IMG/VR virus record: IMGVR_UViG_3300045988_124399
Span: 49,128-113,127 of that record
DNA from: a virus
Strand: one strand, 5' to 3'
DNA: 64,000 bases
Position numbers and translations under genes: made by a program. Below the pieces are notes generated by a model, which searched no databases, had not been told where the DNA came from, and saw only the letters and a program-made list of their open reading frames with translations. Of the stretch, positions 1-64,000 are shown one piece after another; position 1 is the stretch's first letter, and each line of letters opens with the position of its first letter.

Positions 1-1463
1 TAAATACCCTGATTTAATAATTTTTGTAGAAAATGTTAAACAAGAATGTTCTGCCAAGTTTATTTTAGAAAAAGAAGATATTGATGGAGTGTTAATTTAG
101 GAGGTTCTAAAAACTTAGAAATTACCCTTATCTAGCAGTAAATTCTTTGATGATCCAACAAATTCTTCTAGCGAAACTTATATTTCTTTTGGTAGCTTAC
201 AAGAAAAAATGCCAACTTATGATTTTAAAGGTTGGGAAGATGATATGGGAGAATTAGTAATTACTGTTGGAAAAAATGTAAATGAAGAAGATGTTGTTTT
301 AAAAAGCGATTGGAATTCTTTGTCTTTACAACCTAATAAAATGGATTATATTTTTAAAGCGAGATTTGAGCGTAAATCTTATACAATTACTTTCGTTAAT
401 GGCGACCGCGTTATTAATGATTCAACTGTAAAGAAAGTATTTAATTATGGTGAAAAAATTACTGTTCCAGAAGAATTCTATTATTTTAATAATACAGAAG
501 TATCTGATTTACCAGAAGACGAAGACCCATTAGAGTGGACTTGGAGATAGACGGGATGGGCGGATAAAGATGGAGTTAAAATTGATTTAACTAAACAATT
601 AGCTTATGCTGACCGCGAGTTCTACGCTATTGGAGAACCAATTAGTGTTTATAATAATATTTTAATTAATGATTCTACTCATAAATATTATGATATTATA
701 AATTCTGATGGAGAGTTATCATTTGCAATGACTGACTTAGCTAAGAATTTAAAAGGCAAAATTACTTTACCTACAACTTATAATGGTTAGCCAATTACAA
801 GAATTAAATATAGCCAAGTTAACCCATCAGCAGCAGTTGGTATTCAAGTAAATCCTAATATTACTGCGATATTTTTTGCTCCAAAAGATAGCAATAAAAT
901 TTCTGTAATAGATGATTATGCTTTTATTTTAGATAGTGGGTTAGAATATTTCCAATTTAGTGATTGTTTAAAGAAAATTGGTACTAAAGCATTTTATCAA
1001 TGTCCTTTAAGTCGTAATAACATAATTCCTTATTCTTCTTCTACTGAAGGTTTGACTTTTGGAGCTCAAGCATTTTATCAAAGTAAGATGGGTTCTTATT
1101 CTCCTTATAATTTAATTATAGAGGGATGCAAAGACGGTATTCTTAATTTTGATATAAATGCATTTTCTGGTCAGACAATTTTAAATATGTCTGGTAATTA
1201 GTTTAAAGGTTATACTGGCGCTATTCAAGTATAGATTGGTACTAATAAACACCCAATTAAACAAATTACAGCAGATAGCTCTGGCAATATTTTTACTCCT
1301 CGTCAAACTGGTATGCCTACAGTGGCTAATGGATACACAGGTCGTTTTAGATATTATTATGTTGCTAGTTATGGTGAAAGTATTAAAAATACTTTACACA
1401 ATATTTATGAAGCAATGATATCTAATAGAGCGAATTTTGAAGAAGAGCCTATTGTAAAGTGAG
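1..1463 (+). CDS. Structural (tail-fibre-like) protein, 5' partial. Frame is open from nt 2 to the TGA at 1461, with in-frame TAG at 98, 116, 548, 788, 1199 and 1232 read as sense.
   Basis: About 487 codons with no TAA/TGA in AT-rich DNA. N/T/Y/G-rich composition typical of fibre proteins. ORF track fragment 209..550 is part of it. Confidence 0.55.
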
Positions 1464-1481
1464 GATAAATTATGGAAAAAG

Positions 1482-1673
1482 AAATTGTTTATAGATATAT
1501 GGGTTCTAACGGTATTATTGAATCTTCTATATAGTTGACAGGAATTCCTGCGACTACTTTGTATAGATTAATAGCAGATTACAATAAGAAATTAACGAGA
1601 GATGGAAAAGAATTTTTTTCTATCTCTCCTTTAGTCCCTGAAAGTGAATTAAAAGAATGGTATGAGGTTTAAA
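1482..1673 (+). CDS. Small hypothetical protein (63 aa, 1 in-frame TAG)
   Basis: ATG preceded by GAGGATAAAT RBS; ends at TAA 1671. Confidence 0.4.
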
Positions 1674-1708
1674 TAGGCCAGAATACATTGATTTAAATAT
1701 AAAAAAAA

Positions 1709-1748
1709 TTAGGTTAAATAGGAAAAGAAACTATTTAACCTAATTTTT
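1709..1748 (+). terminator. Rho-independent terminator (AGGTTAAATAG ... CTATTTAACCT followed by T7)
   Basis: 11-bp inverted repeat plus T-run. Confidence 0.6.
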
Positions 1749-1768
1749 TTAGAAAGGAAGAGATAGAT

Positions 1769-3451
1769 TTGATAGTTAAAAATGATAGTGTTATCGAACA
1801 AGCTAAATGGGAAGAACTTCAAAAGAAAATCAATACTTTAGCTAAAGATAATAAAATAAAAAACGTTAATGGAAAAATCGTTGAAATAAAATCTATTGAA
1901 GACTATTATAGTAATATCACTGGTATCGTTCAAATGAAGAAGTTAGATCCATCTGTTCTTCGCATACCTTTAGATGAGCCTATTATAAATATAAATGCTG
2001 ATACTCGTCAAATTGAATTAACTAAAGAATTTGGAAAAACTCAATTGCTTACTGTTGAAAATGATCATTTGGCAGAAACAATTTATTTTCAAATTGATAG
2101 ATATTTTGATTTACAAGATTTAGCAGCCGATGATATTAAAATTTATATTTAGTATTATCTAAACGATCAAATTCAAGGTTATTCTGAAGCTATTTGCCCT
2201 GATATTGGTACTGCTGGAAAATTAATTTTTGGTTGGCAAATTAGTGATGAAGTAACTAGTGAATCTGGTACTTTATAGTTTTCTATTATTTTCTTCAAAA
2301 AAAATCCAAAAGATAATAATAATTTAATGTATGTATTTAATACATTACCGGCGCAAATGGTTATCAATAAAACTTTAGACATTGATGAAGATTTAGTTAC
2401 TGCGCAACCTGTTGATTATTTAACTGGATATTTAGAAAGCTTAATTGATTCAAAGAAATCTGCCGGTTTTGGGGTTCCCGATAATGTGGCTTTCTTGACA
2501 AGTATCTTGAATAATAAATTAGTTTATTTAACTGGTGATAAATTATATGCTTTAGCTTATAATGATACCTTAAATAATCCAGATAATACTACTATTGAAT
2601 ATAAATGGATTTGTAATTATAGAGGAACTAATACTGAATTAAAAAATGGTATTGGCTATGAATACAAAAAAATTGTTGATGATAATAGTATTTTTAGTGG
2701 AGATATGGCCTATAACGAAAAATTGACTTATTTTACTAAAAATGGAGATACTTATATTAATAGCAGTAGTGACATTAATCTTGAGAATTATGTTGCTAAA
2801 AAGAATGACCTTTATTTAAAAGTTCAATATTGTGAAGTTGATGGATGCGGAAGTTATAGCGTAACCGCTTATGGTACAACTGCGAATCAAGTAAGTAAAG
2901 AAGTTAAATGGGCAGGACTAAGCGTTGTTGTGGAAGGTATTAGTGAAGATTTTAAAATTATTCTTGACCCTTCCCCTGATAATGGATGCTATTATGGGTC
3001 TTCTAATATAATCACTGCTATTGGATAGAATGATGAAGGAGTTCAGTGTACTTATCTTTGGACAAAGAATGGGTCTGAATTTAGTACTGAAAAAGTTGTA
3101 ACTTTAACTCAAGAAGATAATTATACTTTAACAGTTCATGGATATAAAAATAAAGATAACATAGATTATGGTCCAATTAATTTTACTAATTATTTTGATC
3201 CTACTAATTTAGTTCCTGCTGGTGAAATAAAAACTGAAAATGGAAAATATATTGTTAGTATTAGTAATACTAGCGAGTTGGGAAATGGTATTTATGAATA
3301 TTAGTGGAAAAATGCTGAAGGTCTTACTCAAATAACTACTTCTGGTACTAATAATGCAATAGAAATAAATGAAGACATTACTCAAGTGGCTGTTATTATT
3401 AAAAAAGGTGAAAGAAATTCGAAGCCAGGAGTACTCACGATTAAGAGGTAA
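1769..3451 (+). CDS. Tail-fibre-like protein (about 560 aa), TTG start after AGGAAG RBS. In-frame TAG at 2150, 2276, 3026 and 3302.
   Basis: ORF-track pieces 1769..2152 and 2327..3028 are co-linear in one frame with no TAA/TGA up to 3449. N-terminal domain is paralogous to the 3457..4076 gene. Confidence 0.55.
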
Positions 3452-3456
3452 GATAA

Positions 3457-62764: not shown

Positions 62765-62839
62765 TGGAGCAAGTGAAGGGGATCGAACCCTCATTCTCGG
62801 CTTGGAAGGCCGATGCACTAGCCATTGTACTACACCTGC
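62765..62839 (-). tRNA. tRNA-Gly (UCC)
   Basis: Anticodon stem TCGGC/GCCGA, loop CTTCCAA, T-loop TTCGATC, CCA encoded. Confidence 0.8.
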
Positions 62840-62962
62840 GTAAGCATTTTCTTTATATTGTTGAAAATGCTAAACAATCAATAAAGAGAATAAGAATTGA
62901 AAAAAATTTTGTACGTTTTATATATTTATTATATATTAAATTTTTAAAAATGTCAAATTTTC

Positions 62963-63274
62963 TTATTTCCTAATGTAATACCGCATATAATCTTGATATG
63001 CTTTTTCACGAGTAGGAAATTCATAATTTAAATAAGGATATACTCGCCAACGATACCAACGTGAAATTTCATTTTTATAAAAAGTTTCAAAATCACCTTC
63101 TATGGTATAATAATCGCAAATGTCATAAGAACAAAAAAGTTTTTTATACTCTTTGTAATTATAAATTTCTTCAGAATTTTTTAGTTTTTGACGAACTTTT
63201 TTATTTGCGTATCTCTTATATCCGCGGTCTTTGCGATCGCCACTATAAGGTGTCTTTTTTCTACTTCTACTCAT
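62963..63274 (-). CDS. Basic/aromatic hypothetical protein
   Basis: ORF with AAAGGAGG RBS. Confidence 0.4.
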   Translation of the reverse strand: MSRSRKKTPYSGDRKDRGYKRYANKKVRQKLKNSEEIYNYKEYKKLFCSYDICDYYTIEGDFETFYKNEISRWYRWRVYPYLNYEFPTREKAYQDYMRYYIRK

Positions 63275-63604
63275 TCTTTTAACCTCCTTTAAAAGATGTT
63301 AAAAGATAGTCATTCGAGAACCCATTGGACTCACTCCTTTTAGATTAACTTAAATAATAATATGGTAGCTATGACCCGGTTTCATGGTCAATTACGAAGA
63401 GTAGTTAAAAGTTGTTATCTTTTACCTAAAATCTCTCTTCAACTTCTTACGAAGGACTAAGCCGTATCATTTGGTTTTCCCAACTTATTTCGACTTGCAG
63501 ATTTGTTACCTACTGCTGTACTACCTGTTGACCTGTCTATGTCAACCCCGACCCGTCTATCTAATTTTCATTAGAGGCAACTGCCGTTAGCTATTATTAT
63601 TTAA

Positions 63605-63692
63605 TGGTGCGGGCGACGAGAATCGAACTCGTACGAGGGTTTACCTCATGGGATTTTAAGTCCCAGGCGTCTGCCAGTTCCGCCACGCCCGC
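63605..63692 (-). tRNA. tRNA-Leu (UAA), type II with a long variable arm
   Basis: Acceptor GCGGGCG/CGCCCGC, anticodon stem TGGGA/TCCCA, loop CTTAAAA, CCA encoded. Confidence 0.85.
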
Positions 63693-63884
63693 AGATATCA
63701 GCTTTAATGTCAGCCAACAACTTCCTCTTCAAGTTCCAGCCAGAATTACTGACGCTCAGTCCGTCTATTTTTTCTCTCGCGGGCTTTAGATAATATTTAC
63801 AAGACCTCAAATAACATCCTTGAAGTTTGGTAAAGATTTTATTCTTATATTTGCTGATAAGGCCTTTCTTCATTTTATATAAAT

Positions 63885-63913
63885 ATTATATAATATTTTT
63901 TATAAAATATCAA
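63885..63913 (-). promoter_or_regulatory. Promoter TTGATA-N17-TATAAT, likely driving the tRNA cluster
   Basis: Motif family upstream of tRNA-Leu. Confidence 0.5.
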
Positions 63914-64000
63914 ATTTTCTTTTGTTTAGTATAAATATACCTTTTTAAAAATTTACAACCACCGCAACCACCTTGGTATTTTTATTTTTACAACGATAAC

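Follow-up and report, generated by a model that had tools for sequence, protein, structure and literature searches.

TAG is very probably a glutamine codon, used gene by gene, in a 64-kb stretch of a human gut phage

Is TAG a stop codon in this phage and, if it is not, which amino acid does it encode, by means of which tRNA and in which genes? These questions are raised by a stretch of 64,000 nucleotides (nt) of viral DNA, positions 49,128 to 113,127 of the IMG/VR virus record IMGVR_UViG_3300045988_124399 (the whole stretch is referred to below as the window), in which long reading frames are interrupted by TAG. An earlier look at the letters of the window, referred to here as the original prediction, had suggested that TAG is a sense codon throughout. 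We conclude that TAG never acts as a terminator here, that it is very probably a glutamine (Gln) codon in approximately one third of the genes, that the remaining genes are free of TAG, and that decoding most likely depends on a phage suppressor tRNA with a CUA anticodon encoded outside the window.

The window was found to be 100% identical, over two overlapping stretches, to the ENA ERZ28657976 contig ZEEV15-1_SAMEA3664527_METAG-scaffold_42 (181,800 bp), and corresponds to record positions 67,351-131,350 of ZEEV15-1_SAMEA3664527 scaffold_42. The source genome is that of a lytic-type phage of ~182 kb from the human gut. Close relatives are frequent in human-gut assemblies. A protein of 103 amino acids (aa) from the window is present in 950 collection blocks, on contigs of 177-197 kb or ~380 kb, and at least 78 related loci with protein identities of 51-99% were found in IMG/VR. 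Megablast of a 24-kb stretch of the window against the GenBank phage collection returned no match. The nearest cultured relatives by DNA polymerase III alpha are SPbeta-like Bacillus phages, with an identity of 39% that applies to this protein only. The GC content of the window is 32.2%; the figure of ~28% that was originally given for the DNA holds for the first ~10 kb only.

TAG as a sense codon and the amino acid it encodes

For the gene set we used the stored coordinates of the identical ENA contig, together with a list of open reading frames (ORFs) for a 2-kb gap, yielding 83 genes that occupy 89-90% of the window. All 83 terminate at TAA (61) or TGA (22), none terminates at TAG and none contains an in-frame TAA or TGA, which bears out the earlier claim that genes end at TAA or TGA. 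In-frame TAG amounts to 63 codons in 25 of the 83 genes (30%). The statement that TAG is sense "throughout" thus stands in so far as TAG never ends a gene, but has to be narrowed, as sense TAG is confined to these 25 genes. Moreover, 38 frames of at least 200 codons without TAA or TGA are present in the window and 22 of them contain TAG; 20 block-wise shuffles gave 0-1 such frames. With the frames held the same, coding density rises from 80.3% when TAG is a stop to 89.9% when it is sense; for the part at 1-43.7 kb alone, the two values are 80.0% and 93.3%.

Translation with genetic code 15 in place of code 11 also lengthens the proteins: the longest piece of the anaerobic ribonucleotide reductase NrdD goes from 406 aa to 691 aa and that of the endolysin from 129 aa to 433 aa. 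NrdD occupies a single minus-strand frame (10206..12557) with TAG at 11061-11063 and 10842-10844, and its residues 1-689 align continuously with a solved NrdD (PDB 8p23, E 4e-112) across both TAG codons, so that the homologue alignment is full-length. Likewise, no TAA or TGA occurs in frame 2 over 2..1462, with six TAG at 98, 116, 548, 788, 1199 and 1232, and DnaB, RecJ, the Dda helicase, RuvC and the endolysin are rebuilt across 2, 6, 1, 3 and 8 TAG, respectively; these are the examples that the original prediction had listed. Two neighbouring paralogous genes (1934..3451 and 3457..4077; 37% identity, E 3e-18) had been said to share a TAG at one aligned position; both do carry TAG near the same place, but the positions match only to within one residue and depend on where the gap is placed, and neither Pfam nor PHROG supports the label "tail-fibre" that the pair had been given. 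TAG sites of the window are kept in up to 35 independent assemblies. Taken together, these data support the view that TAG has been turned from a stop codon into a sense codon, as it is in genetic code 15.

To identify the amino acid, the genes of the window were compared codon by codon, as DNA, with 101 related loci, a comparison that is independent of any translation table. Non-TAG codons are found in some relative at 25 of the TAG sites of the window, and at 16 of these the majority is Gln, against a Gln background of 2.9%. Where it is the relative that has TAG, the aligned site of the window is Gln in 70 of 145 cases (54 CAA, 16 CAG), the remainder being mostly Glu, Lys and Asn. When only relatives with an aa identity of 90% or more in the gene in question are considered, 23 of the 27 exchanges of TAG are with CAA or CAG and none is with a Tyr, Ser or Trp codon or with TTG. 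CAA, which lies two substitutions away from TAG, is its commonest exchange partner. With an empirical substitution model built from the same alignments, Gln reaches a log-likelihood of -46, compared with -112 (Lys), -140 (Ser), -142 (Leu) and -160 (Tyr), and is ahead of all 19 other residues by more than 65 units. Because of these likelihoods and the exchanges seen among close relatives, we conclude that TAG has behaved as a Gln codon in evolution, recently too, in the window's own clade, as judged from DNA comparison. The original prediction had held that the amino acid could not be read from the window and had expected Gln by analogy; the expectation agrees with the residue that related DNA favours, and the residue can be inferred once that DNA is brought in.

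Gene-specific use of TAG and the suppressor tRNAs of relatives

The use of TAG differs sharply between genes. DNA polymerase III alpha has no TAG against 49 Gln codons (with a local TAG rate of 13.5%, P=8e-4), and the minus-strand genes of the block at 43.7-64 kb, taken together, have none against 139 (P ~2e-9). TAG is likewise missing from GyrA/GyrB, ligase, RNase H, PhoH, dUTPase and guanylate kinase, and TAG-bearing genes resume past the end of the window. Across the family, orthologues with TAG number 44/67 for RecJ and 43/62 for a GIY-YIG protein, compared with 4/40 for polymerase III and 6/75 for a 367-aa anchor protein, and TAG makes up 0.148, 0.189 and 0.003 of the Gln-type codons of RecJ, the GIY-YIG protein and polymerase III, respectively. 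A second lysozyme-like protein (20638-21477) is TAG-free in 39 of 40 orthologues, unlike the TAG-rich endolysin at 40167-41468. Within genes, TAG is placed like other Gln codons. TAG avoidance is therefore a property of genes that is conserved across the family and not a property of one strain. In some members of the family (L039-L048, L063, L066, L084, L088, L090 and L091; median protein identity 47-56%), 10-17 orthologous replication genes are free of in-frame TAG, which shows that not all of the family is recoded and that recoded and non-recoded lineages coexist.

A suppressor tRNA with a CUA anticodon, which the original prediction had named as a deciding check, is found in the six genomes closest to the source contig (L156-L161), whose flanking DNA is 94-98% identical. 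Here, a second tRNA cluster at a syntenic site contains, beside a tRNA-Tyr, a tRNA(CUA) of 90 nt that scores 56 bits on the Rfam tRNA model. In one of them, L160 (IMGVR_UViG_3300045988_119030, 181,323 bp), which is 96-98% identical to the source contig in the overlap, this tRNA lies at L160:4526-4615. By colinearity, the suppressor site would fall at a window-equivalent position of ~77.3 kb, ~13 kb past the end of the window, and we consider it probable from its relatives that this very genome carries the suppressor tRNA.

The 90-nt tRNA has a mismatched U1-U72 and G73, and in this it is similar to the tRNA-Gln(UUG) of the phage, where G73 is combined with a weak A1-U72 pair. A weak 1-72 pair and G73 are identity elements for glutaminyl-tRNA synthetase in E. 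coli. From the acceptor end we infer the charging enzyme of the suppressor, which would load it with Gln.

Other suppressors occur in the family. A 19-nt pattern search recovered 20 contigs; a 17-nt anticodon-arm pattern taken from L002 had returned mostly unrelated contigs and missed the window's clade. The anticodon and T arms of the 90-nt tRNA are common to suppressors of 75 nt in more distant relatives, where these form a tandem pair adjoining tRNA-Leu(UAA) and tRNA-Gly (L195:4043-4192), and a third, unrelated type of 75 nt is present at L002:8571-8645. The family as a whole has three types of amber-suppressor tRNA at two tRNA clusters, all with a mismatched or weak 1-72 pair and G73; the 90-nt type has no encoded CCA.

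We therefore propose how the two sets of genes could be expressed. As polymerase III alpha, gyrase, ligase, PhoH and a ~20-kb block of RNA-repair and accessory genes by the tRNA genes avoid TAG, they should be translatable by an unmodified standard-code host, whose own machinery would suffice for this set. The TAG-bearing set comprises fibre-like structural genes, the endolysin and a gene-specific subset of replication and nucleotide-metabolism genes; these, most conspicuously the endolysin and the fibre-like genes, would require the phage amber suppressor tRNA (CUA). The split between TAG-free and TAG-bearing genes may then act as an early/late timing device, as in the model of Borges et al. 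(bioRxiv 10.1101/2021.08.26.457843), and by analogy with that model the TAG-free genes would be expressed first. This case adds a well-resolved example of gut phages of standard-code bacteria in which one set of genes is kept free of TAG and TAG is placed in others, and it supports the idea that a change of code times expression.

Several results weigh against this explanation in one part or another. No tRNA(CUA) is present in the window, which has 4 tRNA genes only and to which a permissive Rfam scan adds no tRNA-like element; nor did a search that allowed up to 3 mismatches find a remnant of the suppressor tRNA there. Over the next 8 kb of this contig, past the end of the window, the only tRNA genes are two for tRNA-Ser. 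As neither the window nor these 8 kb contain a tRNA(CUA), the suppressor of this genome is deduced from its relatives. The variable arm of the 90-nt suppressor is long and class-II-like, which would be unusual in a tRNA that accepts Gln. Release-factor genes, the other decoding component that the original prediction had suggested looking for, did not appear: no GGQ motif was found in six-frame translations of 3.07 Mb of loci, which cover the genomes only partly. The timing model is not a clean one either. Genes with TAG lie among TAG-free ones in the replication region, and the lysozyme-like gene at 20638-21477 lacks TAG, both of which weaken the early/late picture; moreover, TAG is not concentrated at the 5′ ends of genes (Kolmogorov-Smirnov p=0.84).

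Codon-usage tiers and rival readings of TAG

An extended version of the proposal takes a second codon into account. Most genes use TTA as their chief Leu codon (48 of the 105 Leu codons in polymerase III), but it is rare or absent in the TAG-free block at 43700-64000 and in YorF and AAA_24, and the phage encodes a tRNA-Leu(UAA) at 63605-63692. From the distribution of TTA and TAG it follows that there are three classes of gene: the first is poor in TTA and lacks TAG, and the other two are rich in TTA, the second without TAG and the third with it. It is conceivable, if rather doubtful, that translation is gated by both codons, each needing a phage tRNA, across these three classes, of which the first would use host-like codons, and that the atypical 90-nt class-II-like suppressor inserts Gln and is replaced by the two other types in related strains. 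If true, expression would follow a graded programme driven by tRNAs, one of them an atypical tRNA that accepts Gln.

A deviation in codon usage was seen in four long minus-strand genes of the first class, encoding an SPFH/Band 7 protein (43707-45092), an RNA ligase (51348-52727), an MVP-shoulder protein (57099-59585) and a DUF2828/DUF7788 protein (60077-61603). Codons ending in A make up 10.5% in these genes, compared with 29-34% elsewhere in the phage, and the counts of individual codons are as skewed (TTA 0, CTA 1, TCA 1, ATA 0, CCA 0; CAA 2 vs CAG 64; AAA 20 vs AAG 159). As a by-product of this usage, one antisense frame on the plus strand is open over the whole length of each of the four genes. 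The deviation may reflect host-like optimal codons or recent acquisition.

The reading of TAG as Gln has rivals, and the one that survives best is that TAG is sense but specifies another amino acid, for instance Ser, Tyr or Leu, via the 90-nt suppressor with its long variable arm. The variable region of ~21 nt with a short hairpin, together with G73, is indeed reminiscent of tRNA-Ser, the anticodon stem is similar to that of the neighbouring tRNA-Tyr, and NrdD codon 480, a TAG in the window, is Phe or Tyr in distant solved homologues. However, the close strains have CAG at that codon, and among close exchanges, 23 of 27 of which involve CAA or CAG, there is none with TAT/TAC, TCN, TTG or TGG. 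The acceptor end, with its mismatched 1-72 and G73, fits the phage tRNA-Gln and not the phage tRNA-Tyr, which has A73, and the log-likelihoods given above place Gln (-46) far ahead of Ser (-140), Leu (-142) and Tyr (-160). We therefore regard a residue other than Gln as very unlikely.

Slightly less probable again is that the host itself reads TAG as sense, in which case the phage would match the code of its host and no switch would take place during infection. Phage-host pairs with matching codes do exist for code 25 (bioRxiv 10.1101/2021.08.26.457843), although nothing direct points to such a pair here. A phage in a host of this kind would not be expected to show the strong, conserved avoidance of TAG in specific genes and in a 20-kb block; moreover, relatives encode a tRNA(CUA) of their own, and some members of the family have no in-frame TAG at all in the genes compared.

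The view that the TAGs are genuine stops, in genes that are split, decaying or broken by assembly errors, is effectively refuted. Under code 11 the pieces do appear as separate ORFs, and one related contig (L150) was annotated in this way at source. Yet the frames are interrupted by TAG only, never by TAA or TGA, homology runs on across every TAG, the sites recur in as many as 35 assemblies made independently, and the essential NrdD, DnaB and endolysin would all have to be broken. Lastly, pyrrolysine can be dismissed as a negligible prospect, since the label "tRNA-Pyl" that ARAGORN puts on the CUA tRNAs derives from the anticodon alone, these tRNAs have ordinary D and T arms and match the general tRNA model, no pyl genes are among the annotated products of the window or the loci, and TAG exchanges with Gln codons.

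Gene content and relation to known recoded phages

The features of the window are listed in Table 1, and further observations on them follow.

Table 1. Genes and other features of the window, with their in-frame TAG codons
Feature	Coordinates	Strand	TAG codons and remarks
C-terminal 486 codons of a giant 2581-aa protein, possibly fibre	2..1462	+	6 TAG; ends at TGA
505-aa protein, paralogue of next gene	1934..3451	+	4 TAG; ends at TAA; CAG or CAA in strain relatives at two TAG sites
206-aa paralogue	3457..4077	+	3 in-frame TAG
376-aa protein	4150..5280	+	3 TAG; CAA in relatives at two sites
142-aa protein, hydrophobic N-terminal stretch	7062..7490	-	3 TAG, kept in 6/6 strain relatives; phrog_4105/4257, unknown function
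RuvC-like Holliday junction resolvase	7569..8114	-	3 TAG; phrog_827/159 match over residues 3-168 spans all three
NrdG, radical SAM activase	9715..10209	-	1 TAG
NrdD anaerobic ribonucleotide reductase, 691 aa	10206..12281	-	2 TAG; CAG in strain relatives at codon 480
DNA polymerase III alpha, 1318 aa	13137..17093	-	0 TAG; 49 Gln codons
PIF1/Dda-like helicase, 397 aa	18071..19264	-	1 TAG, codon 213; relatives: Gln 40, TAG 18, Thr 2
Second Phage_lysozyme2 protein, 279 aa, hydrophobic N-terminal stretch	20638-21477	-	0 TAG
RecJ/DHH exonuclease-like, 582 aa	21531..23279	-	6 TAG
DnaB helicase, 510 aa	25240..26772	-	2 TAG; codon 23 in relatives: Gln 45, TAG 13
220-aa protein (phrog_6721)	29988..30650	-	2 TAG
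GIY-YIG domain protein, 337 aa	30928..31941	-	4 TAG
GyrA, RNase H, small ORF, GyrB	33923..38965	-	0 TAG in all
Endolysin, Phage_lysozyme2 + Amidase_2, 433 aa	40167..41468	-	8 TAG = 32% of Gln-type codons
Block of ~30 genes (SPFH, metallophosphatases, AAA_33 kinase, NADAR, RNA ligase, RlaP-like NTase, MVP-shoulder, DUF2828/DUF7788)	43707..63274	-	0 TAG; 139 Gln codons
HNH homing endonuclease	48417..49037	+	1 TAG; sole plus-strand and sole TAG-bearing gene of the block
tRNA cluster Cys(GCA), Lys(UUU), Gly(UCC), Leu(UAA)	61649..63692	-	no CUA anticodon

The giant protein of which the window holds the C-terminal end was also followed in L009, where 1116 readable codons contain 14 TAG and no TAA or TGA. 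Past the other end of the window, 3-8 kb on in the same contig, lie Mtd_N-domain proteins with in-frame TAG (L144:1-710 and 5107-5766); the domain is one found in targets of diversity-generating retroelements. Some relatives have split genes, with NrdD divided by a GIY-YIG ORF in L007 and L010, and polymerase III alpha by a NUMOD3 ORF in L008 and L011. Such splits have the look of insertions of an intron or a homing endonuclease, and neither of them is present in the window.

Within the TAG-free block, an RNA-repair-type cluster at 45393-55223 comprises three metallophosphatases, an AAA_33 kinase, NADAR, an RNA ligase with a PHA02142 OB fold, an RlaP-like nucleotidyltransferase (NTase) and a ParE-like protein, and is adjoined by the vault-like MVP-shoulder protein and the DUF2828/DUF7788 protein. 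A RAGATH-33 RNA is present at 63463-63591 on the minus strand (126.8 bits; gathering score 120.4), inside the tRNA cluster and starting 14 nt downstream of tRNA-Leu(UAA); a literature search found no paper naming RAGATH-33.

How such a genome is annotated depends on the table that is used. The standard table turns approximately one third of the genes into fragments, including the endolysin and several replication enzymes. The stored gene calls of scaffold_42 read through TAG (NrdD 691 aa, DnaB 510, RecJ 582, endolysin 433), and the source database of L149 and L151 used a TAG-sense code and gives an endolysin of 433 aa. The error is visible in L150, which was called in code 11 and has the endolysin as pieces of 52, 129 and 64 aa. 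Public protein sets for this phage family consequently mix fragments with full-length products.

The closest parallel is with the gut-phage clades that use code 15, in which early genes are in standard code and structural and lysis genes are recoded (bioRxiv 10.1101/2021.08.26.457843). Three of these clades were described as Jade (~210 kb), Sapphire (~201 kb) and Agate (~154 kb); a suppressor tRNA was present in ~40% of genomes, replication genes were variably recoded and codes were mixed within clades (bioRxiv 10.1101/2021.08.26.457843). The phage family studied here resembles them in its human or animal gut origin, its genome size of ~180-197 kb, the alignment of TAG with Gln and the presence of standard-code relatives in the same clade. 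It is also partially recoded, with 30% of genes here compared with 26% for Sapphire, and its lysis and structural genes are recoded, its replication genes variably so, with a tRNA(CUA) in some genomes. It differs from them in that the suppressor of the window's clade is 90 nt long with a long variable arm. Membership of Jade, Sapphire or Agate is plausible, genome size and recoded share being compatible with it; the window contains no terminase.

In crAss-like phages, metaproteomics has confirmed that TAG encodes Gln (Peters et al. 2022, PMC9523058). They share with the present phage the same reassignment and have, as is proposed for the present phage, a bias towards late genes and a suppressor tRNA of their own (PMC9523058), but are an unrelated lineage; here the replication module is SPbeta-like (polymerase III alpha with 39% identity to YorL, and a YorF domain) and the reassignment is deduced from DNA. 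Jumbo phages and the Phassvirus group (PMC10607447) are further cases in which TAG recoding has been catalogued. The Phassvirus/phAss-1 group (PMC10607447) is similar to the present family in coming from the human gut and in having in-frame TAG in hallmark genes and suppressor tRNA genes; in contrast, phAss-1 has a genome of 136 kb, and the 24-kb stretch of the window was without a megablast match in GenBank phages. Lak megaphages (code 15) are alike in TAG recoding, many tRNAs and recoded modules spread over the genome. Unlike the present phage, they are ~560 kb in size, and some encode RF2, whereas no release factor was seen in the 3.07 Mb of loci examined here.

A further comparison is with supE of E. 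coli, an amber suppressor tRNA-Gln with a CUA anticodon that inserts Gln at UAG, arose by point mutation of a host tRNA and gives only partial suppression. The suppressor of the relatives has the same CUA anticodon and Gln-like acceptor features and would work in the same way. Unlike supE, it is encoded by the phage, and no stop position still has TAG.

Measured against these systems, the original prediction is correct but ordinary, and it is not new: recoding, the assignment to Gln and suppressor tRNAs have all been published, and the calls of scaffold_42 already went through TAG. Three features of this family are less ordinary: one suppressor has a long variable arm, suppressor types have been exchanged between strains over time, and codon usage falls into tiers.

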